Part shown: positions 999-63,775 of the stretch, piece after piece
Layout of the letters: every line of letters begins with the position of its first letter
How positions within the stretch are numbered: position 1 is the first letter of the stretch
Assembly (NCBI GenBank): GCA_016187515.1
Contig: JACPJN010000006.1
Location: forward strand, 64,856-128,855
Length of the DNA: 64,000 nt
Direction of reading: 5' to 3'
Origin: Candidatus Uhrbacteria bacterium
GTDB lineage: Bacteria; Patescibacteriota; Patescibacteriia; GWA2-47-26
Notes under the pieces: model-generated
What the model was told of the DNA's origin: nothing
Databases searched by the model: none
What the model saw: only the letters and a program-made list of their open reading frames with translations
Program-made: the position numbers and the translations under genes

Positions 999-2307
999 AA
1001 TGCTTTTCCGGGTCATGCGCGCGCTTAACATACTCTTGCGCGGCCTTTCCGACTCGCTTTAACAACGCCTCATCATAATAGATTTTTCGAATGGTGTCAA
1101 GGATAGGACCTATAGGTCTTATATGTCCTATCGGACTTATAAAGAATCCGGTCTTCCCCTCCTCAATCAACTCCGGTATCCCTCCGATTTGCGAGGCGAC
1201 CACGACTTTACCGGCCGCCATGGCCTCGAGCACGGCGTACGGCGACGGCTCGTACCAAAGCGAAGGTACGATTATCAATTTTGCGCCCTGTATAAGCTGC
1301 TGCAGTGTACTCTTATCTTGAAATCCAAGGAGTTCAACATTCCGTAATTGGTAATTAGTAATTCGTGATTGAAGTTTGTCTGCTTCGGGGCCAGTGCCGA
1401 CGATTTTGAATTTAATTTCCGGCAAATGCTTGGCCAACTCGAGAATAAGATAGACACCCTTCTCCACTGTGAGACGACCGGCGAAAAGAATATAACCCCT
1501 GCCCCCTCCCCTAACCCCTCCCACCGAGGGAGGGGGATTTTGCTGCACTCCCTCTCCCTTTATGGGAGAGGGTAGCCGAAGGCCGGGTGAGGGTGCAACC
1601 GGAAGCGGTATCACGATAATTTTCTGCGCATCCATCCCGCCCCGCACTAACTTCTCTTTCACAAATTCCGTCGGCACGATAAACTTCGCCACATTTTTCT
1701 CGTACACGCGTAACATACGGTGTACGCGCCGCTCCACCACATCCGCAAGCGTGGCGAGGTAAGAATTTTTAATACAGCGGTACGCGATCGCGGCAATCCC
1801 CTGCCGCTCACAAATCTCGCCATGGTCAAAAAGCGCGTAATTCGGATTTATCAGATGATAATCATGTACGCTTCCGACCACCGGAGTATTATAACGCGCG
1901 GCCACGGATAAAATTGAGGGTGAAATGTGGTGATAAATATTGTGAATATGCACAATATCCGGCCGGAATTCATGCATCACGCGCTCAAACTTCCGCGCCG
2001 CTTCGCGCGACCAAACCATGTGTCCGAATTTTTGTATATCGCGCCACAGTCCTTCCCGGCGATCAAAATTCAGCGGTTCCACAAGAAGATCTTCAAACGT
2101 CGTAACCCCCCTATCCCCCCTTACCCTAAGGGGGGAATTGCGATCGTCTCCTCCCCTTAAGGTAAGGGGAGGTGGGGAGGGGTTATGAGCCGTGCCCCAC
2201 AACCCTACCTCCTGTCCATGCTTTACCAGCAACTGCGCCAAATCCAGCACATACGCTTCCGCTCCGGCTTTGCGATAAAGATATTTGTGGACTTGGAGAA
2301 TTTTCAT
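955..2307 (-). CDS. Glycosyltransferase family 4 (GT-B fold, Glycos_transf_1). It carries two in-frame GC-rich palindromic insertions.
   Basis: N-terminus MKILQVHKYLYRKAG...PDIVHIHNIYHH; C-terminus GGIPELIEEGKTGFFISP. The internal ATG at 2307 is preferred over the track start at 2400. Insertions encode ...PSPIKGEGVQQNPPPSVGGVRGGGRGY... and ...PLTLRGGDDRNSPLRVRGDRGV... Confidence 0.75.
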   Translation of the reverse strand: MKILQVHKYLYRKAGAEAYVLDLAQLLVKHGQEVGLWGTAHNPSPPPLTLRGGDDRNSPLRVRGDRGVTTFEDLLVEPLNFDRREGLWRDIQKFGHMVWSREAARKFERVMHEFRPDIVHIHNIYHHISPSILSVAARYNTPVVGSVHDYHLINPNYALFDHGEICERQGIAAIAYRCIKNSYLATLADVVERRVHRMLRVYEKNVAKFIVPTEFVKEKLVRGGMDAQKIIVIPLPVAPSPGLRLPSPIKGEGVQQNPPPSVGGVRGGGRGYILFAGRLTVEKGVYLILELAKHLPEIKFKIVGTGPEADKLQSRITNYQLRNVELLGFQDKSTLQQLIQGAKLIIVPSLWYEPSPYAVLEAMAAGKVVVASQIGGIPELIEEGKTGFFISPIGHIRPIGPILDTIRKIYYDEALLKRVGKAAQEYVKRAHDPEKHYEKIMEIYGRVIGY

Positions 2308-2342
2308 ATTTGTGTACGAATCAACAAATAACATTGCGAATA

Positions 2343-3641
2343 TCACGAATGTGCATCGAATAAATTCGTAGTATTCGTGCGAGATTCGTAATTCGTACAC
2401 AGATTATTTAACACCTCCTCCAGCCCCGCAATGGCTTTCTCCCAAGAATAATCACGCTCGACAATCTCGCGCGCTAGGCGCCGCAGCCGCGCTTTATCTT
2501 CCGGAGTCCTTTCTAAAAATGACATAATGCCTTCGGCAAGCTCCGGAGCGCTGGTTCCCCGAGTAATCAAACTCATGTCCAATTTGCGCAGAATCTCCGG
2601 AGTCGCGCCCGCCGGAGTTCCCACTACCGGGACTCCGCAAGAGAGCGCCTCGAGGGTGGCCATGCCTAAACCCTCCAGGGCTTCGGTGGGCAGTACAAAA
2701 GCGTCGGCGGCCTGATAATAAAGCGGCAGATCTTGAAGCGGCACCGCGCCAATCAAGGTTACCGTATTGCCGAGATTTCGGCGCGCGATTTCTTTTTGAT
2801 AACTGGCGCGCAGCGGCCCTTCGCCCACAATCAACAGTCGTACCGCGGGCAGCTTACGGCGTACGATTTCCATCGCGCGAATCAGCTCGATGATCCCCAT
2901 GCGCGGACTAAAACGCCGCACGGTTAAAAGCAGATTTCCCTCGCGAGACAGTCCTAAGCGCGCGCGCGCCTCGCCAATATCCGCCGGACAAAATACCTGC
3001 TGATCAATGCCCACCGGGATAATCGTCGCGCGATTTTTCGTGAAAGGCGCGATGCTATAGAGCAGCTGCTTGGAAAACTCGGAAAACACTCCCACGGCGG
3101 TTGAACGCGTAAGCACCTGGCGCTCAATTCGACTGGCCATCCGGACAAAAAAACGCGCCAGGAGGGGACGCAGCGGCTCTATAAAAAACGGCAGTGCTCG
3201 CTGCAGTCCCTCCAGTTCAACTTCCTTGGCCGCTGAACCGTGAAATAGATAAAGCGCAGGTAACTTTCCGGCGGAGCCGGATCCGCCTTGGGCGGAAAAA
3301 AATCCCTGCGCGGCAAACGGGTGGTGCAGAATGGCCGCGTCAAACATACTCGTAATTCCGTAATTCCGTAATTTCGTAATTTCTCCCAGCACCCGCGGCA
3401 CCTCGCGCAGCGCCGTTCGCGTTTGCCCGCCGAATTTTTCCAGTTCGGCCGGAGCGCCATATCGAAAAATACGCACGCTCCCCTGGTCCTCAAAAGCCGG
3501 CAGGGTTTCCTTCATCCGCGCGGTAACTACCGTTACCGCGTGCCCGCGGCGCGCCAAATACCGCGCTTGTTCAGCCGCCACATGCTCGGAACCGCCAAAA
3601 CTATCCGGATAAAAGCGTTGAGTGATGATGATAATGCGCAT
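2343..3641 (-). CDS. Glycosyltransferase family 4. It contains a heptanucleotide repeat tract (attacgg/attacga x4) in the coding frame.
   Basis: MRIIIITQRFYPDSFGGSEHVAAEQARYLARRGHAVTVV...; C-terminus GVPVVGTPAGATPEILRK. The repeat at 3351..3388 encodes EITKLRNYGITS. Confidence 0.75.
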   Translation of the reverse strand: MRIIIITQRFYPDSFGGSEHVAAEQARYLARRGHAVTVVTARMKETLPAFEDQGSVRIFRYGAPAELEKFGGQTRTALREVPRVLGEITKLRNYGITSMFDAAILHHPFAAQGFFSAQGGSGSAGKLPALYLFHGSAAKEVELEGLQRALPFFIEPLRPLLARFFVRMASRIERQVLTRSTAVGVFSEFSKQLLYSIAPFTKNRATIIPVGIDQQVFCPADIGEARARLGLSREGNLLLTVRRFSPRMGIIELIRAMEIVRRKLPAVRLLIVGEGPLRASYQKEIARRNLGNTVTLIGAVPLQDLPLYYQAADAFVLPTEALEGLGMATLEALSCGVPVVGTPAGATPEILRKLDMSLITRGTSAPELAEGIMSFLERTPEDKARLRRLAREIVERDYSWEKAIAGLEEVLNNLCTNYESRTNTTNLFDAHS

Positions 3642-3709
3642 AGTGTATTGAGTAAATCAAGCGAGGCAAGCCCTGTAGTGAAGCTTCGCTCTACTACGGG
3701 GCAAGTAAA

Positions 3710-5155: not shown

Positions 5156-5382
5156 AGTTTCTAACTATACCACATTTTCATAAAATTAAAAGAGTCCCCA
5201 ACAGGCACATTGCGCGAAGCGTAAAACAAAACACCCTCGAGTGGTTTGGCTATCAAGGTAAAAGAGTAAGGAGGAGATACTCTAAACCGATTGCCAAACC
5301 GCCCGAAGGCGCTGTTAAGGCGCGGGGTAAACCACCCAAAGGTGCCGCATCGTGTTACGTGCTGCGCGTATCGTGACGGTAT

Positions 5383-5411
5383 ACTCTACCACGTTTCTCA
5401 TCCCCTGTCAA
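5383..5411 (-). promoter_or_regulatory. Putative sigma70-type promoter upstream of the ligase gene: TTGACA-N17-TAGAGT.
   Basis: Minus-strand read ccTTGACAggggatgagaaacgtggTAGAGT, about 230 nt upstream of the ATG at 5155. Confidence 0.3.
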
Positions 5412-5429
5412 GGGCCCCCGTTATCAGAG

Positions 5430-5476
5430 AAGGAAAAATATGGCGCCTGGGAAAGAAGGTTCTCTTCTCTCCCAGG
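5430..5476 (-). terminator. Putative intrinsic terminator downstream of the MopE-like gene.
   Basis: Hairpin cctgggaaagaa-ggttctc-ttctctcccagg, followed on the minus strand by a U-rich tract. Confidence 0.35.
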
Positions 5477-5578
5477 GCGGTGTTCGCGCCTACACGCGAA
5501 ACGTTGAAAGAGCCAATCACGGGCCACGATTGTAGGTTCGTGGAATTTCCCGCGCTTTGTGTTTGTTGTGCTGGCCTG

Positions 5579-7696
5579 CTACGGCGTGGCCGGACCAACC
5601 ACGTCGTTTCGGGGCACGCAGTTGCCGCCCCCGGCGATTTCCTCCGCGGTCACGCGCTCGATCGGGTCGGTCAAACCCGTCCCGTCCGAGCACTCGGTGA
5701 CGAACCGCAGATCGGTGAACAGACCGTCGATCCGTCCCGCTCCCGCGAAGTAGTTGCAGGCCCATCCTTCGCCGGACTCGGCCGAGAACTCTACGTCCTC
5801 GTCCGCATCCGCGTCCACCTCCACCTGGAAGCACGAATCGGCCGTGGGCACCGGCAAACAGAAGTCCACCGCGCTCACCTGCGCCGCCGCGCTTCCCGCG
5901 ACCACCGGCGCCTCGGGCCCGCAGGTTCGAGCCGTGAGGATGCCGTCCACGTCGCCGAAGGTGCCGTCGCCGTTGCGATCCGCGGTCTCGTACGTACCGC
6001 AGAGGGTGACCGCACAGGTCCCCACCGGCTCTCCCTCCGACTCCGACTCGCTCTCGGACTCGGACTCACTTTCCGATTCGCTCTCGCTCTCGGACTCGGA
6101 TTCGGACTCGCCTTCGCCCGGATCCACGGGACACGTGGAACCGAGACACGTGAGCATGCCATCCTCGCAGATGGTCAGCCCGACCGTGCACTCCGGCGCA
6201 CTCTGACACAAGGCCAACTCGTCCGACGTGGGGGCCTCGTCGGCCTCCTCGTCGCAGTCGTTGTCCAACCCGTCGCACAGCTCGGGGCTGGAGCCCACGG
6301 CGTCGCCGCACGGTCCCCATGCTCCGCCGGAGCAGAGCTGGGTACCGGAAACGCACTCGCCGATGTCGCTGCCGCACGGCAGGGTTTCCCCATCCGTGCA
6401 GTCGCAGCCGTTGTCCACGGCTCCGTCGCAGTCCTCGTCGGTCTCGCCGTCGCACGTTTCCGTGCTCGGGACGATCCCGTTGAGGCAGGCGGACCAGAGT
6501 CCGCCGTCGGTACAGAACTGCGTACCGAACTCGCAGGATCCGACGTCCGAGCCGCACGGGCGGGAAACGCCCGGCAGACATGCGAACCCCTCGTCCACGG
6601 AACCGTCGCAGTCGTTGTCGCGACCGTCCGGCACTTCCGGGCTCGGATCGCCCGGGGCGCAGGAGTTGATCACGAGACCGTCCACGCACGAGGTTTCCCC
6701 CGTGGAGGCGCAGTCGCCGCCTCCGCACCCGGTGGACTGGGACTCGAAATCCTCATCCACCAAGCCGTCGCAGTCGGTGTCGCCACCGCCGCAGACGTCC
6801 GAACCGAGGAGGGGTTCGACGTTGCCGACGCACTGCAGGTTGCCGCCCACGCAGATCGTGCTCCCGAAAGAGCAATTCCCCGCGTTGGTGGTCCCGCACG
6901 CTCCACCCGTCTCCACCGTCACGCCGTCCACCACGCCGTCGCAGTTGTTGTCCAGCCCGTCGCAGAACTCAGGGCTGGGCAGGGTCGCGCCAAGGCACGG
7001 TCCCCAGGTCCCGCTCGCGCAGGTCTGGGTGCCGAACTCGCACGTGCCCATCTCCGAGGCCGGGCCACACGTCCGGGTCGCCCCGTTCGTGCAGTCGCAG
7101 TCCTCGTCGGTTGCGCCGTCGCAATCCTCGTCGGTCAGCCCGTCGCAGGTCTCGGGCGCCGGACCCACACTGCCGAAGCAGGTGGCGCTCCAGAACCCGT
7201 CCGCGTCGCAGAGCTCAACGCCCGCGACGCAGGACCCGACGTCGGATCCGCACGAACGCATGACGCCCGAAAGGCAATCCACGCACTCGCCGGCGACACA
7301 CACCTGGTCCTCGAGGCAGAGATCGCAGGGGTCTTCCCCCTCGGACTCGCTCTCGGACTCGGACTCGCTCTCGCTTTCGGCTTCCGCTTCCGCTTCCGCC
7401 TCGGCTTCGGCTTCCGCCTCGGCTTCGGCTTCGGCTTCGCTCTCCGCCTCCGCTTCGGATTCGGCTTCGGACTCGCCTTCGTCCGGCATGCCGGCATCGG
7501 GCTGGGCGTCCGGACCCATGTCCGGCTCACCCTCGGCTTCCGCCTCTGCTTCGGCTTCGGCTTCGGCCTCGGCCTCGGACTCGCCTTCCATGGGTACGAT
7601 GCCCGCGTCCGGCTCTTCCGCATCCGGCGCCTGCGCCGGAGAATCCAGCAGGTTGCAAGCGGCGGCGACCGCCGCCATCCAAATGCTGTACCTCAT
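5579..7696 (-). CDS. Secreted/lipoprotein with acidic EA/ES low-complexity tracts and about 8 MopE-like Cys-rich repeats (CDGxDxDCDGxxDE).
   Basis: Start is the ATG at 7696 with RBS AAGGAGGAA (MRYSIWMAAVAAACN...), preferred over the TTG at 7771. It is homologous to the small proteins at 27897 and 30392. The overlapping plus ORFs 5291..7750 and 6228..7763 are GC-rich antisense artefacts. Confidence 0.6.
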   Translation of the reverse strand: MRYSIWMAAVAAACNLLDSPAQAPDAEEPDAGIVPMEGESEAEAEAEAEAEAEAEGEPDMGPDAQPDAGMPDEGESEAESEAEAESEAEAEAEAEAEAEAEAEAEAESESESESESESEGEDPCDLCLEDQVCVAGECVDCLSGVMRSCGSDVGSCVAGVELCDADGFWSATCFGSVGPAPETCDGLTDEDCDGATDEDCDCTNGATRTCGPASEMGTCEFGTQTCASGTWGPCLGATLPSPEFCDGLDNNCDGVVDGVTVETGGACGTTNAGNCSFGSTICVGGNLQCVGNVEPLLGSDVCGGGDTDCDGLVDEDFESQSTGCGGGDCASTGETSCVDGLVINSCAPGDPSPEVPDGRDNDCDGSVDEGFACLPGVSRPCGSDVGSCEFGTQFCTDGGLWSACLNGIVPSTETCDGETDEDCDGAVDNGCDCTDGETLPCGSDIGECVSGTQLCSGGAWGPCGDAVGSSPELCDGLDNDCDEEADEAPTSDELALCQSAPECTVGLTICEDGMLTCLGSTCPVDPGEGESESESESESESESESESESESESEGEPVGTCAVTLCGTYETADRNGDGTFGDVDGILTARTCGPEAPVVAGSAAAQVSAVDFCLPVPTADSCFQVEVDADADEDVEFSAESGEGWACNYFAGAGRIDGLFTDLRFVTECSDGTGLTDPIERVTAEEIAGGGNCVPRNDVVGPATP

Positions 7697-7743
7697 GAGT
7701 TCCTCCTTGCGCCTACGGCGCATTGTTGTTGCGCCGCAGACGC

Positions 7744-7772
7744 TTTTTAAACGTCTGGGCTGATCTGTCAAT
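7744..7772 (-). promoter_or_regulatory. Putative promoter TTGACA-N17-TAAAAA for the MopE-like gene.
   Basis: Minus-strand ttcaTTGACAgatcagcccagacgtttAAAAAG, followed by leader ...gcaaGGAGGaactcATG. Confidence 0.35.
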
Positions 7773-7993: not shown

Positions 7994-8011
7994 CACTCTC
8001 ATAATAGATCC

Positions 8012-8066: not shown

Positions 8067-9233
8067 CTATCGCGCCGGAGCCAGCGGCATGGGCACCGCC
8101 CACTCGCCGCGCACCTCCCCCCGCCTGCGAACCGGAGCCGGCTCCCCGAACGGGAACCGTCCCTTCAGAAACGCCCCGACCCCGAAGTCCATGGACTGCG
8201 GGTGGCTGACCTGGCCAGCCAGGTCCACTTCCTCGCGCCGCAGCCCGCCGACCAAGGCCTGGAGTTCCAGCCGGACTACGTCCGACCCGATCTCCAGTAC
8301 CGGCCCGGCCTGGACCAGATTGCTCTGTCCACGCTCGGACTCGTCATGGCCCCGACCGCACCAGCCCGCCAGACCGCCGATCGACACCGCGCTTTCGCGG
8401 GCGATCGGGGTCAGGGCTCCGGCCTGAATGCAGACAAACTTGTCCGCGTCCGCGTCCAGATCCAGGCCCCCGGCCGCCACTCGCAGGGTGGGGCTCCAGG
8501 TCGTGGACTTGAGATCCAAGTCCGCACCCAGCTGAACCCCGGCGCCGGACCCGAAGTCGTGAAACCCGACTCCGCCGGCACCCACGGTGAACGCGGACCG
8601 CTGGTCCTGGTCCCGCGGAGCACAGATCACGCCGGCCGGGCACTCCTCGCCAGAGCCGATCAAGAGTCGGCCGTGCGAGTCGTACGCGGCTGCTTCTGCC
8701 GCGGCCCGGTCCGCCTCCGCGAGTGCGGTGTCCACGACTTCCAGGGCCGCGCGGTCCTGGTCGGTCCGCTCCCGCGCCGCACGCAAGGCCCGGGCCCGCT
8801 CGGCGAGCTGGTCCTTGCGGGCCTGCAGCGCCTCCTGGTCCACCGGCAGACGATCCGCCGGCGCAGGACGCTCCGAAGCGGCCTTGAACACGATGCAGGG
8901 CGTATCCCCGCACCGGGCCGCGGCACACTCCTGGTAGATCCTGTCTTCCACCGTGCCGGGAGCGAACGCGAAGTTCTCGCCCGGACGACGGTTGAGCTCC
9001 ACGAGACGGGCACAGGTGGGGCCATCCACTGACCCGCGCACCTGCCTCCCGTTTTCCAACTGCCAGGCGCAAACCTGGCAAGCCGAACGAGTGGCCTCCG
9101 CCTGCTTGACCGCCTCGTCGCCGAAGCAGCGCAGACAGAACTTGCTCACGTCCCTCACGTCCCGCCCCTGCGCCACTGCCGTGAACGGCAGAGCGAGAAG
9201 GGCGAGAACGGAAAACACGCTCTTGATTCTCAT
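8067..9233 (-). CDS. Secreted protein with a central coiled-coil and a Gly-rich C-terminal domain; function unknown.
   Basis: Clear signal peptide MRIKSVFSVLALLALPFTAVAQG. RBS GAAGGAG sits upstream of the ATG at 9233. Overlapping GC-rich ORFs 8034..9032(+) and 8344..9405(-) lack such signals. Confidence 0.55.
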   Translation of the reverse strand: MRIKSVFSVLALLALPFTAVAQGRDVRDVSKFCLRCFGDEAVKQAEATRSACQVCAWQLENGRQVRGSVDGPTCARLVELNRRPGENFAFAPGTVEDRIYQECAAARCGDTPCIVFKAASERPAPADRLPVDQEALQARKDQLAERARALRAARERTDQDRAALEVVDTALAEADRAAAEAAAYDSHGRLLIGSGEECPAGVICAPRDQDQRSAFTVGAGGVGFHDFGSGAGVQLGADLDLKSTTWSPTLRVAAGGLDLDADADKFVCIQAGALTPIARESAVSIGGLAGWCGRGHDESERGQSNLVQAGPVLEIGSDVVRLELQALVGGLRREEVDLAGQVSHPQSMDFGVGAFLKGRFPFGEPAPVRRRGEVRGEWAVPMPLAPAR

Positions 9234-10158: not shown

Positions 10159-11493
10159 CTACTCGGCTTCAAACACCGCGGCCTTGCCGCCTCCGGCCGG
10201 CGGCGGTGCGGGCACACGCTGTCCCGCACTCTGCCTGGACGCGGCCTGGCGCGCCCGCTGCCGCTTCACCGGCTTGAAAGCGGGCTTTTCCGTCTTGACC
10301 GGCTCCGGAGTTGCTGCCGGCGGCGGAGAAGACGGCGCAGCGGCCGCCACAGGAACAGTGGTCACCGGCGGGCTCGGCGGCAGGATCGGCTGAACCAGAG
10401 GGACCGACGGGCTGGACTGCAGCAGTACGATGAAAAGCAGTACTGCGAAAACGAAGACCAGCGCAAAACCCGCAAGTAGGGCCAATCCCTTCCGCCCCTT
10501 CCACCCGTAAGGATCGGTCGCGGTTACGGCACGCGCAACTGCGCCTCCCTGCGTAAACGCGCTAAGCGCGGCCCGGAACTCCTCGACCGAGGCGTACCGC
10601 TCCTCTGGTTGCCGCGCGATCGCCTTGAGAGCAACCGAGCTGACATCCTCGGAAACCGCCGCGCGCACTTCGTGAGGCGGCCGGGGCTGCTGCGTGGCCT
10701 GGCGGTGGAAGATCGTGAGCAGATCCTCGCGCCCAAACGGCGGCTCGCCCGTGAGCATCTCGTAGAGCACGGCGCCAAGCGAGTACACGTCCGCGCGGCA
10801 GTCCACGATCTTGCCCGCGGCCTGCTCCGGCGCCATGTAGGCCGGAGTGCCGATGATCAGCCCGGCCTGCGTGCGCGCGGCGCCCTGGCGGTTGACTTTC
10901 GCGATCCCGAAGTCAATCACCTTGACCAGGTCGCCTTCCGGCGAGTCGGTCAAGAAGATGTTGTCCGGCTTCAGGTCCCGATGGATGATGCCCCTGGCGT
11001 GCACGGCCTCAAGCGCGTGCGCCGCTTGCATGATGATTGCCAGCGCGCGATCCGAATCGATCGCGCCGGAAGCCAGCAGCCGCTGGAGCGACTGGCCTTC
11101 GAGCAGTTCCATCACGTAGAACGGATGGCGAACCCCGCCAATCTCGATTGCGCCCGCATCGGTGACCGAGACGACGTTGCCGTGGCGAATCGCGACGAGC
11201 AGTCGCGCCTCTTCCACAAAGCGCTCGGCAAACTGCGCTGCCGGAGTTGAACCGCTGGCCGGGTAGTAGATCTTGAGCGCGTGATGGCTCCCCAAGGTCA
11301 GATGTTCAACCTTGTAGACCTGGCCCATTCCGCCGTGATCCAGGGCGGTAAGCACCCGATAGCGGCCCTCCACGATCTGACCTACGAAAAGCAAGGGGGT
11401 GATGCCGGAGCCGGTAAAGGCGCCGGCGTCGGAGGCCGGCAGCGTCGGATCGCTGCCCAGGCCGTTTCCAACCGGTCCTTTTCCATTGCTCAT
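10159..11493 (-). CDS. Hanks-type Ser/Thr protein kinase with a C-terminal TM segment and a Pro-rich tail.
   Basis: Motifs GQIVEGRYRV...GGMGQVYK...ALKI...HRDLKPDNIFL...DFGIAK...GTPAYMAPE. The ATG at 11493 has RBS GGAAGGAG; the track start at 11601 is less likely. Confidence 0.8.
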   Translation of the reverse strand: MSNGKGPVGNGLGSDPTLPASDAGAFTGSGITPLLFVGQIVEGRYRVLTALDHGGMGQVYKVEHLTLGSHHALKIYYPASGSTPAAQFAERFVEEARLLVAIRHGNVVSVTDAGAIEIGGVRHPFYVMELLEGQSLQRLLASGAIDSDRALAIIMQAAHALEAVHARGIIHRDLKPDNIFLTDSPEGDLVKVIDFGIAKVNRQGAARTQAGLIIGTPAYMAPEQAAGKIVDCRADVYSLGAVLYEMLTGEPPFGREDLLTIFHRQATQQPRPPHEVRAAVSEDVSSVALKAIARQPEERYASVEEFRAALSAFTQGGAVARAVTATDPYGWKGRKGLALLAGFALVFVFAVLLFIVLLQSSPSVPLVQPILPPSPPVTTVPVAAAAPSSPPPAATPEPVKTEKPAFKPVKRQRARQAASRQSAGQRVPAPPPAGGGKAAVFEAE

Positions 11494-11627
11494 GGCAATG
11501 CTCCTTCCTGAAGATGTGGCTCGAGACATCGCTCGAGCAAGTTTTCGAGGAACAATCGCTGGGATTTTCAAGCCCGTCCAAACACCCTGTTTCACAACCA
11601 ACGCGGGCCTAAAATCACCAACAATTC

Positions 11628-16827: not shown

Positions 16828-16922
16828 ACTGCCTACAGTATACCACACGGTGGGGGTGAGATTCTCCGCCGGAGGCGGATGCGCCTCCCGCCCAAGGCGG
16901 ACAGGCGGGCGCAGAACCTATA

Positions 16923-21424: not shown

Positions 21425-21535
21425 TACCGCGGAACTTATACAGAACTAGAACGGATCTTACACTGACGTTTCCGCATATGTTCCGCTATGGTTCCGTATA
21501 TGTTCAGTGTCAGAAACGGAGTTTCTGATTCAACT
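21425..21535 (+). promoter_or_regulatory. Copy (rearranged, inverted) of the 90-bp CGGAAC/GTTCCG upstream element family.
   Basis: Shares gaacatatacggaa, cagtgtaag.tccgt and the start-proximal ATAAGTTCCG with 47771..47870 and 52401..52500. Confidence 0.4.
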
Positions 21536-28669: not shown

Positions 28670-28740
28670 GCCCCTCACCCCATCCCCCCCTTCGCGAAGG
28701 GGGGACCAACCCTCTCCCCACGGGGAGAGGGGGTGTCGAG
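28670..28740. repeat. GC-rich two-hairpin palindromic element, intergenic copy.
   Basis: cccctcaccccatcccccccttcgcgaaggggggacc...ctctccccacggggagaggg. Confidence 0.6.
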
Positions 28741-47916: not shown

Positions 47917-49470
47917 CTACAAAGCGGTTTTTTTGTCAAGCCCTGGTTGTGCCAGGGCTGTGGATAGACCTAAAAATCCCCAAAACAACAGAATTCCAAA
48001 GGGTAAAGTCCAAAGATAGTGATCAAACATTAGTAGAATTAAAAATGTAAGCAGAGCTTGCTCCAGCGGCACTCGTCGAAAATGTCCAAGCGGAGCTTGT
48101 CCATTTTGCGCCTCGTTTGCTGGAGTAAAATGTAAAATGTAAAATTTCGATTGACGGACGATTGTGTAAAGCGCGGCCACAAATAATAGCAATCCTACTA
48201 CTCCCAACTCTGCCAGCACCAGCAAAAACACATTATGTGCCGGTTGATACGACCACAACGGCTGTCCCGGCCGCACATCACGCGCAAGGGCTTGGGTGTA
48301 ATTGCCGATTCCAACGCCGGCCACGGGATGCGCGCGCGCCAGCTGCCAGGCCTCGCGCACGCCTTCCACGCGTTCCGCGCGCGATTTTACTTCCAGGCGC
48401 GAATCGCCGTGAAAACGCGTGGCCACAAGCGGACGAAAAGTGAGTGTAAGAAGTAGTACGTAGAAGATAATCAAAAAAATATAAAAACGATCGTGTGCGA
48501 CTTCTTGCCCCTCACCCCCGCCCTCTCCCACACAGGGAGAGGGAGATCGTTTTGCTTCCTCTCCCTTTATGGGAGAGGATTGAGGTGAGGGTTTCCCTAA
48601 TACCTTAATAACCCAATAACTTAATAACACGATCGTCGCCGCCCACGCCGCGCGAGAGAATGAGAAAAAAATTCCCGTGATTAAAATCGGCACTGTTATT
48701 TTTAGCAATAACACTTTTATGCTTCTTTCCTTCCCCTCTTCTAATAACCTAATGACTAAATAACTTAATAGCCCCAACGCCACCACTAAATATCCTCCCA
48801 GCACATTGGGGTGCGGCAATCCCCCGTAGGCGCGCAGCCACCGCTCATCCGCAAACTCCACTACCGACGTGCCGAGTACGGCTGGATCATGGAGCGCCAG
48901 GCCCAGCAGTGTGGACGCGAATGTGGATTGGGTGAGGAATTGATGGATACCGAGGATTGCCTCCAGGGCGGCGCCGATAAGGAAAGCGTACACCCACCAC
49001 TCTGTCATTCCGAGCGAAGCGAGGAATCTCTTCCCTTTCGCAGGCGTAGCGGTAGAGATTTCTCCACTCCGCCCCGACTGAAACGTCGGGGCTACGGTCG
49101 AAATGACGATGTAGAGAAGTACTCCTTCCAAAAGCCGCATCGCCGCCTGCAGCGCCACGAGTTTATCCGGCGCCCAGGCGATCGAAAAAAACGCCAATAA
49201 AGGCAAACCCAAAAACCAAATATTTTTCATTTTTAATTTTTCATTTTTAATTTTGATTGCCCCCATGGCAATCACCACCCACCCCAAAATCTCGGCCAAA
49301 AAAACGGATAATGTGCCGTACTCGTACAACTGCGCTGCTCTAAAAACATACCGGGTCTGCAGCGGCAATAAAAAAAAGAAAGCCGCCAGCAGCGCGTAAA
49401 ATGCCTGATCAAAGGCCAACCGCGGCCAAACGCGCGGCATACTCTTTTTTAAAGTATTCTCGTTTGTCAT
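47917..49470 (-). CDS. Second O-antigen ligase/Wzy_C-like membrane protein, carrying at least four insertions.
   Basis: FSFSRAAWAATIV motif. Contains a heptamer tract (48125..48146, giving KFYILHFT as in ligase 1), a GC-palindrome element (48508..48596), a GTCATT MITE (48985..49085, giving RFLASLGMT) and taataac repeats. Confidence 0.55.
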   Translation of the reverse strand: MTNENTLKKSMPRVWPRLAFDQAFYALLAAFFFLLPLQTRYVFRAAQLYEYGTLSVFLAEILGWVVIAMGAIKIKNEKLKMKNIWFLGLPLLAFFSIAWAPDKLVALQAAMRLLEGVLLYIVISTVAPTFQSGRSGEISTATPAKGKRFLASLGMTEWWVYAFLIGAALEAILGIHQFLTQSTFASTLLGLALHDPAVLGTSVVEFADERWLRAYGGLPHPNVLGGYLVVALGLLSYLVIRLLEEGKERSIKVLLLKITVPILITGIFFSFSRAAWAATIVLLSYWVIKVLGKPSPQSSPIKGEEAKRSPSPCVGEGGGEGQEVAHDRFYIFLIIFYVLLLTLTFRPLVATRFHGDSRLEVKSRAERVEGVREAWQLARAHPVAGVGIGNYTQALARDVRPGQPLWSYQPAHNVFLLVLAELGVVGLLLFVAALYTIVRQSKFYILHFTPANEAQNGQAPLGHFRRVPLEQALLTFLILLMFDHYLWTLPFGILLFWGFLGLSTALAQPGLDKKTAL

Positions 49471-50296
49471 GATCGTGGAATTTTAAAAACTCCTCGTTCA
49501 TCACTACGCCCTTTCCTTTATTCGCCATCTCCCGCAAATGCGCGGGCATGATATTCATCTGCACCCATCGCAATAATTTCTCCAGAATATCGCCTCCACC
49601 GCTCCTTTTTCCCCTCACCCTCCCCTCCCCGGGGCCTGCGCTCGCTCGGCCCGTCTTCGACCCCCGCGGGAGAGGGTGGCCGAAGGCCGGGTGAGGGTGC
49701 GTCAGCGGCAGCAAATTCTTCAACCAATACTCAAAGTACACATCCCCGCCTCCGGGCAATGCCGCGCGCCGCATCTGCGCCCCCTCCGCCGCGAAAAACG
49801 AAAGACAAAGGCCGTCTTTGGCGTGCGCGCTGGTTGGCCGGCCAAAACATTTCGCGAGCAGGATTAGAAAAAACCGCGCGGACCAGATCCGGCCGCGCCT
49901 GATCGTAATAAAAAGATCAATATCGCTCTCTGATCGCGCGTTCAAAAATCCCAGCGAGTTACAGGCATAGATCGCCCGCACAAATGGAATCCGAAGCGCC
50001 AACCGCGCAAAGCGCCGCGCTTTATCAAGTTTGTATTTTGAAGCGCGGTAGCGTCGCGCTCGTTCGCCACTTTGCGGTGGCGCGCCGCCGCAAAGTGGCG
50101 AACGCAAACTCCATACTCCGTCCTGAAATACTAAACGCGCTTTTAGCCGCTCGCTTTCCAAGAGCAGCCGCGCCACCTCGCTATACTGCGCTGCTCCGCC
50201 AATACTCCGCCAAATCTCTAAAGTAGTCAACGGATACGAAAAAAGATCAAAATAGACCAGCACCTCAAGGATTTCCTGCTCGAGATGACCTGACAT
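49409..50296 (-). CDS. Putative nucleotidyltransferase-fold protein, interrupted by a GC element and a perfect 16-bp palindrome.
   Basis: GFLNARSESDIDLFI (Pol-beta-like GS...DxD); palindrome gttcgccactttgcgg/ccgcaaagtggcgaac at about 50030..50110. Confidence 0.35.
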   Translation of the reverse strand: MSGHLEQEILEVLVYFDLFSYPLTTLEIWRSIGGAAQYSEVARLLLESERLKARLVFQDGVWSLRSPLCGGAPPQSGERARRYRASKYKLDKARRFARLALRIPFVRAIYACNSLGFLNARSESDIDLFITIRRGRIWSARFFLILLAKCFGRPTSAHAKDGLCLSFFAAEGAQMRRAALPGGGDVYFEYWLKNLLPLTHPHPAFGHPLPRGSKTGRASAGPGEGRVRGKRSGGGDILEKLLRWVQMNIMPAHLREMANKGKGVVMNEEFLKFHDHDKREYFKKEYAARLAAVGL

Positions 50297-56778: not shown

Positions 56779-58254
56779 ATGGCCAATTCTCCATCGGAAA
56801 CTAATCCGCCGGAACTCGGCGAGAGCCGGCGCACGGTTGCCCTGCTTATTGCCGCGCTCTTCTTTCTGATTGTCAGCGCGACAATCGGCGGGATGCTGTT
56901 TGTAAGCGCCGCCGGATTTACTCCGTCAAAAGTATTCGCCAAAATCCGCTCGCTTACTTTAGCGCGGGAAAAAGCTCTGCAAGGAGAAGACGCGGACCGC
57001 GTTAATATCCTGCTTTTGGGCATGGGCGGGGTGGGACACGAAGGCGCCACGCTTACGGACACCATTGTGGTCGCTAGTATCCGTCCTTCGGATACCCAGG
57101 TCGGACTGCTCTCGATCCCGCGCGATCTCCAAATTAAGATCCCGGGTTATGGCTATGGACGGATCAATACGGTCAATGCCTACACCGAACGCGACAGCCC
57201 CGGGACCGGCGCGGCGCAGACCGCGCGGATAATTTCGGAAATCCTGGATCAGCCAATCCACTACTACATCCGAGTGGACTTTGCCGCCTTTAAAAAAATC
57301 ATTGACACCGGCGGAGGTATTGAAGTTAATGTCGAACAATCTTTCTACGACCCTTTTTATCCAGATGATAATTTCGGATATGCGCCGGTTTCCTTTGAAA
57401 AAGGCGTACAAACCATGAATGGCGAGCGCGCCCTGCAATTTGTGCGCTCGCGCCACGGCACGGGTGGCGAAGGCAATGACTTTGCTCGGGCTCGGCGGCA
57501 GCAAAAAATTCTTCTGGCCCTTAAAGATCGGCTGCTTTCCTTTGATGTGCTCCTGCGCCCCAAAAGGATCAAAGCCATCATCGAATCCCTAAAGGACCAT
57601 ATCCAGACCAACATCGCGCTGTGGGAAGGCCTGCGGTTTGCCAACCTCCTCAAAAACATCGATCCGGCCAAAATAAAAAGTCAGGTGCTGGACAGCAGCC
57701 CGGAAGGACTGCTGCGCGAGCGTAATTATAATGGGGCTTTTGTGCTGGAACCAAAAGATCAGACCTGGGGCGAGGTTCGCTCCCTGGCTGCTCAAATATT
57801 TGAAGAAAATCCACCGGCAAAAAGTTCAATCTATTCCCCTCCCACCCCCCCACTCCCACCCCTCCCTCCCACCCCCTCTTTATCTCCCCCTCGGGCAGGG
57901 GGAGAACACGAGACAATTTCTCCCCCTCTCGGAGGGGGAGCTAGAGGGGGTCTGGTTATCACCGACACTCCTACCGTCGAAATCCAAAACGGCACCTACA
58001 TCACCGGCCTGGCCGCCCGCACCGCGGAAAAACTCGAAGGGCTTGGCTTTAATCCGGTAGGTCTGGGCAACTCCGCCACCCGGGACGTGGCCACCACGGT
58101 AATTTATGACCTCGCCGCCGGAAAAAAACCAGCGGACTTTGAAAAACTAAAAACCCTGCTTAAGGCCGTCGCGGGCGAAGGTGAACCACTGCACATTATC
58201 AGCAAAGAACGACTGGATTTTCTGATCATCCTGGGGGCCAATGCCGCGCAATAA
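56779..58254 (+). CDS. LytR-CpsA-Psr (LCP) family protein, with a GC-element insertion.
   Basis: NILLLGMGGVGHEGATLTDTIVVASI...SIPRDL...; insertion PPTPPLPPLPPTPSLSPPRAGGEHETISPPLGGGARGG. Confidence 0.75.
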   Translation: MANSPSETNPPELGESRRTVALLIAALFFLIVSATIGGMLFVSAAGFTPSKVFAKIRSLTLAREKALQGEDADRVNILLLGMGGVGHEGATLTDTIVVASIRPSDTQVGLLSIPRDLQIKIPGYGYGRINTVNAYTERDSPGTGAAQTARIISEILDQPIHYYIRVDFAAFKKIIDTGGGIEVNVEQSFYDPFYPDDNFGYAPVSFEKGVQTMNGERALQFVRSRHGTGGEGNDFARARRQQKILLALKDRLLSFDVLLRPKRIKAIIESLKDHIQTNIALWEGLRFANLLKNIDPAKIKSQVLDSSPEGLLRERNYNGAFVLEPKDQTWGEVRSLAAQIFEENPPAKSSIYSPPTPPLPPLPPTPSLSPPRAGGEHETISPPLGGGARGGLVITDTPTVEIQNGTYITGLAARTAEKLEGLGFNPVGLGNSATRDVATTVIYDLAAGKKPADFEKLKTLLKAVAGEGEPLHIISKERLDFLIILGANAAQ

Positions 58255-58255
58255 G

Positions 58256-58328: not shown

Positions 58329-59795
58329 ATGCACCCGCTTCCAACAATTGTCATCATCGGCCGACGCAATGTCGGAAAGTCCGCGCTTTTCAATCGTCTG
58401 ATTGAGGAACAAAAAGCGATCGTTTCGGATATTGCCGGCACGACCCGCGACCGCACCGAAGGAATTTGCGTGTGGCGCGGACAAAATATACGCGTGGTGG
58501 ATACTGGCGGTATGGATGTCGGCGATGCTGACACGATTGATCGGGAAATTAAAAAACAAGCGCGGTTTGCCATTAAAGAGGCGGATCTTATTTTATTTTT
58601 GGTTGACGCGCGAGTGGGACCAGTACCCGCCGAGGCCGCTTTGGCCAAAGAACTCCGCCGATCAATTTCCCCCCCTGCCCGAGGGGGGGCAAGGGGGGGT
58701 GGGAGCATCCTTCTCGTTGCCAACAAGGCGGAAACGGAAAAGTGGCGCACCGCAGGGCAAGATCCCGGATGGAAGCGCCTCGGTTTTGGCGTGCCGCAAA
58801 CAATTTCCGCCCTCACCGGCCAAGGGGTGGGCGACCTGCTTGATACAATTTTCAAACAACTCAAGCCGTCAGCCGTCAGCCGTCAGCCGTCAGCCGATAT
58901 AAAAATCGCGATTATCGGCAAACCCAACGTCGGCAAATCCTCGCTCCTTAACAAAATTCTTGGCGAAGAGCGCGTCATCGTCTCCCCTATTCCGCACACC
59001 ACTCGCGAGCCGCAAGACACTTTATTCACGTATCACGCAGCACATAACACGTATCACGTATTGTTGATTGACACCGCGGGCCTGCGCAAAAGGGCCAAAA
59101 GAAAAGAGGGACTGGAACAAATGGGGGTGTATAAAACACTGTCCGTGATCGGGCGCTCGGAGGTGGTAATTTTCGTGCTTGACGGAACGCAGCCGCTGGA
59201 CGCCCAGGACAAACACTTAGCGCAGATGATTGTGGAAAAAGGGGTGGGAGTAGTTATTGCGGTCAATAAGTGGGATTTACTTTCGGGAAAACCCTCACCT
59301 CCATCCTCTCCCATAAAGGGAGAGGAAGCGGGAAAAAATCCCCCTCCCTTGGTGGGAGGGGTTAGGGGAGGGGGACGCACCACACAAGAGGGCGACCTTC
59401 TAATGAAACAAATCCACTTTGGCCTGCCGGGCCTTACTTTTGCGCCAGTCGTCTTCATCTCAGCGCTCACGGGCCACAGTGTCCACAAACTCCTGCTGCT
59501 TGCCATGCACGCGCACGAAAATCGCAAGCGTGTCATTGCTGACGAAGACCTTAAAGCACTTTTGCCAAAACTTATTTTGCGCCACCGTCCCGCGCGCTCC
59601 AAGGCCGGCAGCCGCCACCCCATTATCCGGGCGATTGTTCAAACCGGCACTGAACCACCCGCTTTTGTAATTATTATCGGCCCCAAACAGTCGCTCCACC
59701 AAACTTATCTGCGTTTTATCGAAAATCAACTCCGCCGCTACTACGATTTTGAAGGAACCCCCATCAAGGTTTGGGTAAAACAGGAACGCGGCTAA
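58329..59795 (+). CDS. der: GTPase Der/EngA, with two GC-element insertions and a cagccgt x4 heptamer tract in the inter-domain linker.
   Basis: Two G-domains (GRRNVGKSALFN; GKPNVGKSSLLN); insertions PPARGGARGGGS and SPPSSPIKGEEAGKNPPPLVGGVRGGGRT. Confidence 0.85.
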   Translation: MHPLPTIVIIGRRNVGKSALFNRLIEEQKAIVSDIAGTTRDRTEGICVWRGQNIRVVDTGGMDVGDADTIDREIKKQARFAIKEADLILFLVDARVGPVPAEAALAKELRRSISPPARGGARGGGSILLVANKAETEKWRTAGQDPGWKRLGFGVPQTISALTGQGVGDLLDTIFKQLKPSAVSRQPSADIKIAIIGKPNVGKSSLLNKILGEERVIVSPIPHTTREPQDTLFTYHAAHNTYHVLLIDTAGLRKRAKRKEGLEQMGVYKTLSVIGRSEVVIFVLDGTQPLDAQDKHLAQMIVEKGVGVVIAVNKWDLLSGKPSPPSSPIKGEEAGKNPPPLVGGVRGGGRTTQEGDLLMKQIHFGLPGLTFAPVVFISALTGHSVHKLLLLAMHAHENRKRVIADEDLKALLPKLILRHRPARSKAGSRHPIIRAIVQTGTEPPAFVIIIGPKQSLHQTYLRFIENQLRRYYDFEGTPIKVWVKQERG

Positions 59796-59992
59796 CTCCT
59801 CCCCTTGAGGTAAGGGGAGGTTGGGAGGGGTTATGAAAAAGCCGGACCCACCCATGTGGCTATCCGGCTGGCCTGGAACTGCGCTGGCCTTGTAATGCCC
59901 TTGGACTCTCGGTTTTCCGGCCAGAAAACCTACCTTCCCAAAAATCCGTAGTCGCCTGTCTGGATGAGAAAGCGCAGCTATATGCCCGGACG

Positions 59993-60508: not shown

Positions 60509-60741
60509 AACTTCCTCCTCCCATGCGGGTAATTGCGATAGAACGACGGCGTGCTGCTTTGCCGTTCCAGTATCGGTACACCCGACACGAGTATGCCAGC
60601 GCTGCTGAAACCGGCGACATGCCGATTCCAAGCGCCCGCACTTTCAACCTACTCTCCTTACTGAATCTGGTCAAGACACAAAAAAAGAGCCGGAGGCCAC
60701 CAAGGTGGCTATCCGGCTGACTTGGGAACTTGACCGAGCGG

Positions 60742-61206: not shown

Positions 61207-61332
61207 GGTTCCTCCTCTAGGTGCCTTGTTCACGTGCACGGGGACAATTCCCCATACCGCGATAAACGCATCCTATTACAAAATCGACAATTTGTCAAGG
61301 GGGTGGTAAAATAGGCGAGACAGATAAAACCT

Positions 61333-61905: not shown

Positions 61906-62043
61906 AAAATCCGCTAAAAGCGGAGTCCTCGGCTATTCCCTTACGGGACCAATCTCTGCCAAAAAGGGCAGGCCTTCGCCGAGGATCACGATATCAGCAT
62001 ACCATATCTGTAAAATCTGTCAATACCATCTTATACACATCCT

Positions 62044-62658
62044 ATGAAACTCATCGTCGGCCTGGGCAACCCGGGAAAAGAATACGAAAAAACCCGACAT
62101 AATGTTGGGTTTCTTGCGGTTGATGGAATCGCGCGGGATTTGCAATTTTCCAAATGGAAAATGGAGAAAAAATTAGAGGCCGAGGTCTGCCGCGGCTTTA
62201 TTGCAAGTTGCTGTGAAGATGTTATTTTAGCCAAGCCGCAAACCTTTATGAACAACTCCGGCGCAGCCGTCAAAAAACTTACTGTGAACTATCGACTGAC
62301 GACTGACGACTTACTGATAGTCCACGATGATCTGGATTTAGAGCTTGGCACGCTGCGCTTATCTTATGGTTCTGGCAGCGCCGGCCACAACGGCGTGCAG
62401 TCCATAATTGACGCGCTCGGCACCAAAGATTTTTGGCGTTTGCGTGTTGGTATTGGCCGCCCCCCACAAGCTCCCTCCCTTAAGATAAGGGAGGGTAGGG
62501 AGGGTTATGACGATACAACAAAATTCGTGCTCCAACGCTTTCCACGTTTAAGCCAAGGCAAAGTAAGAAAAGCTATTGCGGCTGCGGTCGCTGCCGTGCA
62601 ACTCATGTTTCAAAAAGGTCCGCACGCGGCACAGACGGAGATTAATAAAAATAAATAG
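62044..62658 (+). CDS. pth: Peptidyl-tRNA hydrolase, with an in-frame GC-element insertion.
   Basis: MKLIVGLGNPGKEYEKTRHNVGF...; insertion PPQAPSLKIREGREGYDD. Confidence 0.85.
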   Translation: MKLIVGLGNPGKEYEKTRHNVGFLAVDGIARDLQFSKWKMEKKLEAEVCRGFIASCCEDVILAKPQTFMNNSGAAVKKLTVNYRLTTDDLLIVHDDLDLELGTLRLSYGSGSAGHNGVQSIIDALGTKDFWRLRVGIGRPPQAPSLKIREGREGYDDTTKFVLQRFPRLSQGKVRKAIAAAVAAVQLMFQKGPHAAQTEINKNK

Positions 62659-62873: not shown

Positions 62874-62950
62874 ATAAGATAAAAAAAGCGCCCGGATGAC
62901 CGTGAAGTCAGAGCCGGGACGCGGAAACCAGCGCGACGCTGGGTACAAAA

Positions 62951-63562
62951 CTACTTGCGGACGGCGAGAAACCGCCAGCTCGAATTCCAGCCGTCGTCAG
63001 TCCAGTATAGGCTCAGTCCACGTCTGCCATGCCAGCCGTCGAGGCCGGGCACGTTGCGAAGACCGTTGGGATGGACCAAGGAGGAACCGAGCGCGACGAC
63101 CATGAGCTCCCACTGATAGTCAGCCTTGGCAAACGCGCGAAGCTCTCGGCCGGTTGCGGGACGAAACCCCAGGGCATCGAGCCGCCGTTCAGCTTCTTCG
63201 GTCGAGATCGAAACCTCGCCCTCGTGGTGGAGCTTGAGCGGGGTTAAGCTGACCGTCGCCGTTCCTCCTGCCTCCGACGGAAAATACTCGTCCGTGATGC
63301 GCGAGTTTACTAAGTCAAACTCGTCCTTCACGCCCTCCCACGGTTGGGAGTAGTTGACCGTCGCGACCGTCGGCTTGTCCTGCTCGAGCGCGACGACTTG
63401 GACGGACGCCGTGCTGGCTAACGTGGTCGCAGGTGCCGCCGCGGACTTGTCCGCCTTCGCCGACTGCGCCTGGCACTTCTTGAGCGCGAACTCGAGCTCG
63501 GACACGCGGCTCGCGGAGCTGTTGCAACCGAACACCAAAACTGCCAACAAGAGTTTCTTCAT
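62951..63562 (-). CDS. Lipoprotein; function unknown.
   Basis: MKKLLLAVLVFGCNSS lipobox; RBS AAGAGGTG. Confidence 0.5.
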   Translation of the reverse strand: MKKLLLAVLVFGCNSSASRVSELEFALKKCQAQSAKADKSAAAPATTLASTASVQVVALEQDKPTVATVNYSQPWEGVKDEFDLVNSRITDEYFPSEAGGTATVSLTPLKLHHEGEVSISTEEAERRLDALGFRPATGRELRAFAKADYQWELMVVALGSSLVHPNGLRNVPGLDGWHGRRGLSLYWTDDGWNSSWRFLAVRK

Positions 63563-63671
63563 CACACACCTCTTTGTGGGCTTTTGTATGCCCGTTTGGG
63601 TTGGGAACAACTGTGTGCATGATAGGACATTTTTGCCCTTTTGTCAAGAGGTGGGGTATAATACACAAATT

Positions 63672-63775
63672 TCCTCCCCTTAGGGTAAGGGGAGGTGCAG
63701 GAGGGGTTACGCAATTTCCCTCCCAAGGCGGACAGGCATAACCCCCTCTAACTCCCCCTTACCTTAAGGGGGAGA
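63672..63775. repeat. GC-rich two-hairpin palindromic element, intergenic.
   Basis: cctccccttagggtaaggggagg...ccccttaccttaagggggag. Confidence 0.6.

Follow-up and report, generated by a model that had tools for sequence, protein, structure and literature searches.

In-frame occupation of conserved genes by repeats of the BoxC/PIT/TM_ECO type in a Candidatus Uhrbacteria genome

Results

The DNA analysed here, referred to as the window, is a stretch of 64,000 nucleotides (nt) from a Candidatus Uhrbacteria genome (contig JACPJN010000006.1), i.e. from a host of the Candidate Phyla Radiation (CPR). It carries, among others, genes for a glycosyltransferase (GT4), RsmA, an O-antigen ligase-like protein (Wzy_C), a LytR_cpsA_psr protein (LCP), Der and Pth, and it is interspersed with short hairpin repeats, most of which lie within these genes. 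An earlier note on the window had described these repeats as a family of two-hairpin palindromic elements inserted in-frame into conserved genes. As judged from their sequence and architecture, they can be assigned to the BoxC/PIT/TM_ECO family of intrastrand triplex motifs (TM), which is known from E. coli.

We scanned the window for hairpins with perfect stems of at least 7 base pairs and loops of 3-8 nt, comparing those with a pure pyrimidine 5' arm to those of opposite polarity. The scan yielded 21 perfect pyrimidine-first hairpins (stem 8-9, loop 3-5, purine 3' arm) and no purine-first hairpin in the entire 64 kb, where about 0.1 would be expected, and each of 20 third-order Markov shuffles contained only 0-1 hairpins of either kind. 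As a pyrimidine-first hairpin stays pyrimidine-first when read on either strand, the ratio of 21 to 0 is a real asymmetry of polarity. The hairpins group into 14 elements, 11 of which (15-16 of 19 units) are located within 8 open reading frames (ORFs), and the unit density is ~0.3 per kb (19 in 64 kb). Thus, the two hairpin consensus motifs reported earlier are present where they had been placed, with approximately none expected by chance, they occur in both orientations, with units mapped on the plus and the minus strand, and most copies indeed reside in ORFs without breaking the frame. An identical Pth and the same units are found in independent Logan assemblies of several sequencing runs, so the elements are not assembly artefacts.

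The description as a two-hairpin element holds only in part. Two hairpins are often present, but the repeat unit is a single hairpin plus a G-rich tail, which the earlier note had missed, and two such units in inverted orientation make up the larger element (doublet). The tail lies on one side of each hairpin and mirrors its purine arm, i.e. on one strand a unit consists of a pyrimidine arm, a loop of 3-5 nt, a purine arm, a linker of ~3 nt and the mirror G-rich arm. This third arm is a perfect mirror in 17 of the 21 hairpins and has one mismatch in 2 further ones; the linker measures 3 nt in 14 of these 19. On the opposite side of each hairpin the mirror score reaches only 2-7 of 9. Examples (purine arm, linker, third arm) are AAGGGGAGG, TGG, GGAGGGGTT; AAGGGAGGG, TA, GGGAGGGTT; AAGGGGGAG, TTA, GAGGGGGTT; GGGGGAGGA, TTA, AGGTGGGGG; and GGGAGAGGG, CCG, GGGTGAGGG. 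Occasionally, an A of the purine arm is replaced by T in the third arm. Inspection of the arm sequences shows that the third arm fails as an alternative Watson-Crick hairpin partner of the pyrimidine arm wherever the arms are asymmetric. As the tail is therefore unable to form Watson-Crick pairs with the pyrimidine arm, its relation to the hairpin follows the base-triplet code known for antiparallel triplexes of the purine motif (G*G-C / A*A-T / T*A-T), suggesting that a single-stranded unit can fold as class II purine-motif intrastrand triplex.

Two sub-types can be distinguished. Type A resembles the copies known from E. coli, whereas type B (unit sequence CCTCCCCTTAAGGTAAGGGGAGGTGGGGAGGGGTT) has the loop TTAAGGTAA, arms such as AAGGGGAGG / GGAGGGGTT and a third arm ending in ..GGGGTT. 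Type B follows the same three-arm mirror rule and shares doublets with type A-like units; it was noted only in this genome and in the Uhrbacteria relatives L006, L129 and L211, the pattern having been searched within this clade. The ending GGGGTTATG pointed out before is present, but it represents the end of the third arm (..GGGGTT) followed by ATG and is no start codon. A role of GGGGTTATG as Shine-Dalgarno sequence plus start codon is ruled out, since no ORF begins at the copies, which are found on both strands and within domains.

In the window, the units are arranged as five singlets (40588, 41605, 58669, 59798, 62473), six tails-out inverted pairs and one tails-in pair (63673/63740). The GT4 gene holds two of the tails-out doublets. 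The first is composed of a unit on the minus strand (1504..1535; CCCCTCCC, loop TCGGT, GGGAGGGG, linker TTA, GGGGAGGG) and one on the plus strand (1550..1593), the 12-nt linker of which accommodates an extra small hairpin (GCCGAAGGC) and the mirror arm of which matches at 9/9 positions; this linker-hairpin variant recurs in other phyla (L046, L015, L047). The second is located in the Glyco_transf_4 domain (aa 72-99) and comprises two type B units, 2104..2136(-) and 2150..2184(+), the latter reading CCTCCCCTT, loop AAGGT, AAGGGGAGG, linker TGG, GGAGGGGTT. The singlet at 40588..40622(+) lies in the TSP3-repeat ORF 40387..41208(-) at aa ~190-225, in a C-terminal part that is putatively coding, and is preceded by a C-rich run (40535-40587). 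RsmA contains a singlet of canonical TM_ECO sequence (41605..41637(+), aa 188-202) and a type B doublet (41779..41810(-) and 41825..41859(+), the latter with a mirror score of 8/9; aa 112-141). The doublet in the Wzy_C gene (aa 292-321) is made of two type A units, 48509..48543(-) and 48557..48591(+), and its RNA fold has an energy of -61.6 kcal/mol (z -7.8); the mRNA folds of doublet-bearing genes range from -45 to -62 kcal/mol if Watson-Crick pairing is considered. A further doublet, 57871..57905(-) and 57920..57952(+), resides in the variable linker of LCP. Der harbours a singlet at aa 114-126 (site 1, 58669..58700(+)) and a doublet at aa 321-349 (site 2, type A unit 59292..59326(-) and unit 59341..59372(+)), and 3 nt past its stop codon there is an intergenic type B singlet (59798..59832(+)). 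Pth contains a type B singlet (62473..62506(+), aa 143-156), and the intergenic tails-in pair consists of two type B units, 63673..63708(+) and 63740..63774(-), the spacer of which contains a copy of another hairpin family, GTCCGCCTTGGGCGGA (see below).

Two copies reported earlier, 28670..28740 and 49605..49700, are present but degenerate. The former is an intergenic doublet whose two hairpins have poor third arms (7/8 and 6/9), and the latter, located in ORF 49409..50296(-), has kept just the linker hairpin, the third arm and the purine arm of the right-hand side intact; no family match for this ORF was obtained with Pfam, and NCBIfam returned nothing useful for the unannotated ORFs, this one included.

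All singlets have the G-rich, triplex-forming strand on the plus strand, regardless of the orientation of the host gene, which may reflect a bias with respect to the direction of replication, in a sample that is too small to judge. The GC skew is negative over the whole window (1-64000). As a separate observation, the doublet spacers 2137-2149, 41811-41824 and 48544-48556 (ATTGCGATCGTCT, GTTCCGATCGATCT and GGAGATCGTTTTGC) carry CGATCG or GATCG at or near their centre; CGATCG occurs 31 times in the window.

The elements are insertions into conserved genes, as had been proposed, since Pfam domains run through them in GT4, RsmA, Wzy_C, LCP, Der and Pth and homologs lack the segments. Alignment with orthologs, a check suggested in the earlier note, confirms this for Der, LCP and Pth, and solved structures do so for Pth and RsmA. 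Pth has 12 extra residues after GIGRPP as compared to the M. tuberculosis enzyme, and RsmA exceeds B. subtilis KsgA by about 25 residues at the doublet and by 10 at the singlet. The occurrence of the same peptide segments in orthologs had been named as an argument against insertion; the 29-residue insert at Der site 2 is found in 0 of 119 homologs and the 12-residue insert at site 1 in 1 of 119, a relative with 75% identity. In an AlphaFold model of Der (mean pLDDT 85) both inserts are low-confidence coil (pLDDT 43-76) between secondary structure elements, in line with the predicted loop location. The first GT4 element lies exactly between the two Rossmann domains (aa 267-302; the Pfam match ends at aa 268 and resumes at aa 301), and the LCP element is situated in a linker that also varies among relatives.

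None of the 11 in-gene copies has a stop codon in the frame in which it is read, and downstream of each the reading frame is maintained. Doublets are stop-free in only 2 of 6 frames, and a given doublet type uses one and the same frame in different genes, giving rise to the recurring peptide SPIKGEEA..PPP.VGGVRGGG in Der, GT4 and Wzy_C. As few frames are open and the same one is re-used, preservation of the frame reflects a survivorship filter rather than a designed property. The added segments are rich in Pro, Gly, Ser, Arg and Glu, extending the Pro/Gly/Arg-rich character noted before, and the maintenance of the frame in essential genes suggests that they are translated as parts of the host proteins. 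In the window, units are not depleted from long open frames (16/18 units vs 336/400 random positions); outside CPR they are (85/200 vs 329/400), and in-frame copies outside CPR were found in DnaX, MetRS, LigA, an IcmF-like fusion and a YgiQ-like radical SAM protein.

The gene order signal peptidase, LCP, Der, Pth is conserved among relatives, and the insertion sites can thus be compared directly. Comparison of presence and absence, likewise suggested before, revealed a patchy occupancy. The Pth unit is common to the window and L211; L005 has a degenerate form of it, and it is missing in L006, L212 and L213. The unit at Der site 1 is shared only with L129/P0010, 38 of 41 nt being identical, with changes in the linker, vs ~75-80% identity of the flanks, and at Der site 2 L129 has a different singlet in place of the doublet. 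The unit just past the Der stop codon is shared with L129 and is also present in the independent assembly L001. The right-hand LCP unit has an orthologous counterpart in L211, and in the window a left-hand partner has been added to it. TM densities among relatives range from 0 in 21 kb up to 19 in 64 kb. Such a patchwork speaks for units having repeatedly been gained and lost and for sites having been used again.

Two further local differences were noted in this region. Der and Pth are adjacent in L006, L211 and L213 and are separated by 2.2 kb in the window (59798-62043), a variable stretch that contains two ORFs without family matches and a DUF3800 gene and the exact start of which is the TM unit behind the Der stop codon. 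In L129 (ERZ4903125), a 7-nt tandem duplication (ATGGAAC ATGGAAC; 1170-1195) directly upstream of the TM unit divides Der into two ORFs; this is either a real frameshift beside the repeat or an assembly error, and it fits the instability reported at TM sites.

The family has been named BoxC in E. coli (1990s, Bachellier et al.), PIT, for 'potential intrastrand triplex' (Hoyne and Maher; Hoyne et al. 2000, 2002), and TM_ECO (Holder et al. 2015, PMC4666352), the latter being defined as CCCTCNCCC N3-6 GGGNGAGGG N3 GGGNGAGGG. With one mismatch allowed, units 41605, 48509, 48557 and 59292 fit this definition, and the class II order is kept in the window (17/21 perfect, 2/21 with one mismatch, 0 purine-first). 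In a blastn search the RsmA unit (41600-41640) matched 5,079 of 5,426 complete E. coli genomes with 80-95% identity over 37-38 nt, most genomes exceeding 90% identity; the matches, a median of 6 places per genome, always lie in unannotated intergenic DNA, e.g. between cpsG and wcaJ, which we read directly. A scan of one genome per species with the pattern CTCTCCC N3-5 GGGAGAGG N3-16 GGTGAGGG returned at least 120 stretches, many of them with several copies. The matches listed include Proteobacteria, Chloroflexota, Planctomycetota, Acidobacteriota, Cyanobacteria, Verrucomicrobiota, Nitrospirota, Omnitrophota, Elusimicrobiota, Bifidobacterium and others; the pattern occurs in most bacterial phyla.

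E. coli MG1655 has 23 TM_ECO copies, described as 'always intergenic', among them five inverted pairs of two sub-types (PMC4666352). The class II purine-motif triplex is stable in vitro and was undetected in vivo, promoter, terminator or in vivo polymerase-blocking activity was absent in earlier experiments, and no mobility genes lie near the E. coli copies, which are linked with local genomic instability (PMC4666352). By analogy with the E. coli sequence, the window units may form the same triplex. Salmonella reportedly has no TM_ECO. In the window, 15-16 of 19 units are in ORFs with domains on both sides; intergenic placement is a property of the location and not of the sequence family.

Units of the family also flank a nuclease gene. 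In a local search of 120 loci selected for TM units, DUF559 ORFs are bracketed by such units in 5. In the beta-proteobacterial metagenome-assembled genome L024 (2110-2650) a complete TM-DUF559-TM module is located in-frame inside MetRS, between the anticodon-binding and the tRNA-binding domain, and in L155 (2294-3306), a metagenome contig with 40% GC, a module and further TM units apparently interrupt a glycogen-branching-enzyme-like gene, as assigned by eye. The only DUF559 gene of E. coli K-12, ycjD, has a degenerate unit at its 3' end and a full TM_ECO downstream, before fabI. In the ycjD-fabI spacer (L130 2700-2920), ahead of the full TM_ECO, the terminal ~40 nt of ycjD occur once more in incomplete form (tggagacggtgctggagaatattc...), and this copy looks like the remnant of a duplicated module end.

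For a reciprocal test, 80 metagenome loci, which represent the 80 closest relatives of TM-flanked seed proteins, were fetched by two DUF559 core peptide motifs only. A strict TM unit is present within -350/+250 nt of the DUF559 match in 56 of the 80 loci, and on both sides in 26. The nearest upstream unit is oriented toward the gene (+) in 30 of 38 loci and the nearest downstream unit is inverted (-) in 38 of 44. The TM density amounts to 2.12 per kb beside the gene vs 0.070 per kb farther off, a 30-fold enrichment. In 20 loci each flank has a unit in the correct orientation; here the module spans 403-463 bp, and in many of these loci both ends share the loop sequence. In L177 the order is doublet-ORF-doublet, with a whole tails-out doublet and the start of the spacer directly repeated on both sides, an arrangement that would yield a solo doublet upon recombination or could be the outcome of circle integration. 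As these loci were selected without regard to repeat sequence, they also serve as control for the architecture: they contain 174 pyrimidine-first vs 3 purine-first hairpins, and in hairpins with asymmetric arms a perfect mirror was counted 89 times, as compared to 16 times for a perfect direct repeat and 13 times for a perfect match to a permuted arm. In the literature searched, YcjD appears only as a predicted Vsr-like PD-(D/E)XK nuclease, and no link of DUF559 or YcjD with BoxC/PIT/TM repeats was found. The association, strong as the loci suggest it to be, is apparently unreported.

Discussion

We consider it probable that the elements are copies of the BoxC/PIT/TM_ECO repeat, i.e. selfish, non-autonomous DNA that survives in-frame in genes, with the DUF559 module as proposed autonomous partner. 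The family identity, the mirror-arm rule, the status of the segments as insertions, their loop location in Der and the patchy distribution among relatives form the observational part of this explanation, and the spreading mechanism is inferred, at lower confidence. According to this scheme, units behaving as selfish DNA in the Candidatus Uhrbacteria genome would have landed in, or have been copied into, coding sequence, and would have survived only where the insert length keeps the frame, the frame is free of stops and the extra peptide falls into a loop or inter-domain linker. The surviving Pro/Ser/Gly/Arg/Glu-rich inserts would then be translated within the host protein. In other bacteria, modules of ~440 bp that encode a DUF559 (YcjD/Vsr-like PD-(D/E)XK) nuclease have such units as inverted ends. 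As units form its inverted ends and doublets are sometimes repeated on both sides, we propose this module as the autonomous partner, with solo doublets and singlets being its remnants or non-autonomous copies, which may arise by recombination between flanking doublets, similar to solo long terminal repeats (LTRs). To our knowledge, neither the origin of the BoxC/PIT/TM repeats nor their mechanism of mobility has been explained in ~30 years. We speculate, although we rate the chances of this more general idea as slightly below even, that the repeats are the ends and remnants of a pan-bacterial selfish DUF559 module of ~440-500 bp, the nuclease acting on the hairpin/triplex ends to propagate it, and that solo doublets and singlets, including those in-frame in Der, Pth, RsmA and other genes of this genome, are its non-autonomous offspring.

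Several points weigh against this explanation. Pfam analysis of ~45 of the 60 candidate ORFs revealed neither a DUF559 gene nor a transposase in the 64-kb window, the part of the genome that was covered, so that a DUF559 partner is hypothetical for this lineage. The 80-locus sample describes one subfamily of DUF559, and no target-site duplication was seen at the 20 complete modules. Moreover, association does not amount to mobilisation by the nuclease; the gene could instead home into pre-existing repeats. Holder et al. detected no triplex in vivo and found no mobility genes beside the E. coli copies (PMC4666352). That the units at Der site 1 and in Pth are shared could be due to selection on structure instead of neutrality, and translation of the inserts is inferred rather than observed.

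Selection by the host is the first alternative, i.e. the units might be functional structures that serve as sites of recombination or replication pausing, or that slow down translation from one domain to the next at the level of the mRNA. At Der site 1 as well as in Pth, orthologous units retain all three arms, the changes being confined to loops and linkers, while the flanks are only ~75-80% identical; the doublet mRNAs fold stably, several inserts lie at domain boundaries (GT4 aa 267-302, the LCP linker) and the singlets share one strand. However, most orthologs, even close ones, lack the inserts, the host genes have no function in common, earlier experiments revealed neither promoter or terminator activity nor a block of polymerase in vivo, and gene conversion among copies would preserve the arms equally well, rendering this explanation unlikely. 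Equally unlikely, and for the whole family largely refuted, is a lineage-specific, previously undescribed miniature inverted-repeat transposable element (MITE) of CPR, analogous to the Rickettsia palindromic elements (RPE), as the earlier note had proposed. The behaviour does match, conserved genes being occupied in-frame, type B was noted only in this clade, and no paper on such CPR elements was found in the literature searched. The near-identity of type A to E. coli BoxC/TM_ECO (80-95%) and the occurrence in most phyla, on the other hand, speak against a CPR-specific analogue of RPE, type B is built by the same three-arm mirror rule and forms doublets together with type A-like units, and the family has been in print since the 1990s.

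That the elements are cut from the transcript or bypassed by the ribosome, and hence missing from the proteins, is highly improbable. Very stable RNA structures inside essential genes and the out-of-frame Der of L129 beside an element would be compatible with it, but all 11 of 11 in-gene copies are stop-free and keep the frame, which excision would not need, and the frameshift in L129 is explained by the 7-nt tandem duplication on a low-coverage metagenome contig. We know of no splicing signals for the TM family. Finally, native low-complexity linkers or assembly artefacts are hardly credible and already refuted: the LCP region is variable and Pro-rich in relatives, too, with a similar total protein length, but the same nucleotide units occur in unrelated genes and intergenic DNA, identical peptides (e.g. 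SPIKGEEA..PPP.VGGVRGGG) are present in Der, GT4 and Wzy_C, homologs lack the segments, and independent assemblies from several sequencing runs carry the units.

The window elements can be compared to several known systems. They share with TM_ECO the three-arm class II design (pyrimidine arm of 8-9 nt, loop of 3-6 nt, 3-nt linker, mirror G-rich arm), the sequence of type A, the inverted pairs of two sub-types, the lack of an adjacent transposase and the association with locally variable DNA. They differ in that 15-16 of 19 units are in ORFs, several of them essential genes, whereas E. coli copies are always intergenic, in their density of ~0.3 per kb vs ~0.03 per kb in the richest genome named by Holder et al., in the CPR host as compared to Proteobacteria in that paper (with other TMs in cyanobacteria), and in the additional sub-type with the loop TTAAGGTAA.

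RPE, reportedly described by Ogata et al. in 2000, have a length of ~100-150 bp, are known from Rickettsia only and are not known to have a triplex-type mirror arm. They resemble the window elements as short palindromic repeats that reside in-frame in conserved genes and add surface peptide while function is kept, but, as judged by their description, would belong to an unrelated sequence family. REP/REPIN-RAYT systems similarly comprise hairpin singlets and inverted doublets, many dispersed copies and a single-copy bracketed gene elsewhere. In the TM case, however, the bracketed gene codes for a DUF559 PD-(D/E)XK nuclease and not for an IS200/IS605-type Y1 transposase, the units lack the conserved GTAG head, and the family is cross-phylum, whereas REPs are genome-specific; among the window ORFs scanned there was no Y1_Tnp or other transposase that might act as cognate RAYT. 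Free-standing PD-(D/E)XK homing endonuclease genes and remnants similar to solo LTRs are analogies only: a small nuclease gene lies between palindromic repeats and the repeats far outnumber the gene, but cleavage, target site and homing of DUF559/YcjD are hypothetical. The modules, which have the hairpins outside and the third arms inside and sometimes a whole doublet on either side, resemble neither a classical homing site nor transposons that make target-site duplications. As compared to classical MITEs, inverted ends are present and no duplication is evident at the 20 complete DUF559 modules.

The element family itself (BoxC/PIT/TM triplex motif) and its inverted pairs in E. coli were known before, and TM repeats are among the most widely conserved short bacterial repeats. 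New are the very high density of the TM family in a CPR genome, the unhindered occupation of coding sequence, essential genes included, and the distinct sub-type with the TTAAGGTAA loop. Colonisation of coding sequence on a large scale is thus possible, with essential proteins of a reduced CPR genome carrying repeat-encoded loops of 10-30 residues, a behaviour until now mainly tied to Rickettsia. This is relevant for the annotation of CPR proteins and for the understanding of many 'lineage-specific insertions' in CPR. Moreover, the association with DUF559 provides a testable candidate enzyme behind the repeats, a testable mechanism and a first functional hypothesis for E. coli YcjD.

Other features of the window

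At the gathering threshold, Rfam reported three tRNAs only in the window. A genome of the cyanobacterial HIP1 type is ruled out, as GCGATCGC occurs only 8 times. A single ORF of 2,984 residues covers 31418-40372(-) and is free of TM units, as is a high-GC island at 6000-14000 (62-69% GC vs about 52% elsewhere). The island has long overlapping ORFs on both strands that gave no Pfam matches (5291..7750+, 5579..7771-, 8067..9233-), followed by a gene for a Ser/Thr protein kinase (10159..11601(-)).

The second hairpin repeat, GTCCGCCTTGGGCGGA (TCCGCCCAAGGCGGAC), does not correspond to the triplex motif and is present in 6 copies at up to 2 mismatches vs 0.03 expected (3281-3296, 16887-16902, 22428-22443, 22554-22569, 55200-55215 and 63718-63733). 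The 'variants' that the earlier note had listed at 16845..16920 and 22540..22580 belong to this repeat and not to the TM family. Several copies of GTCCGCCTTGGGCGGA are inside ORFs (a second GT4, HisRS and ORF 21510..22817), and one lies beside tRNA-Ser.

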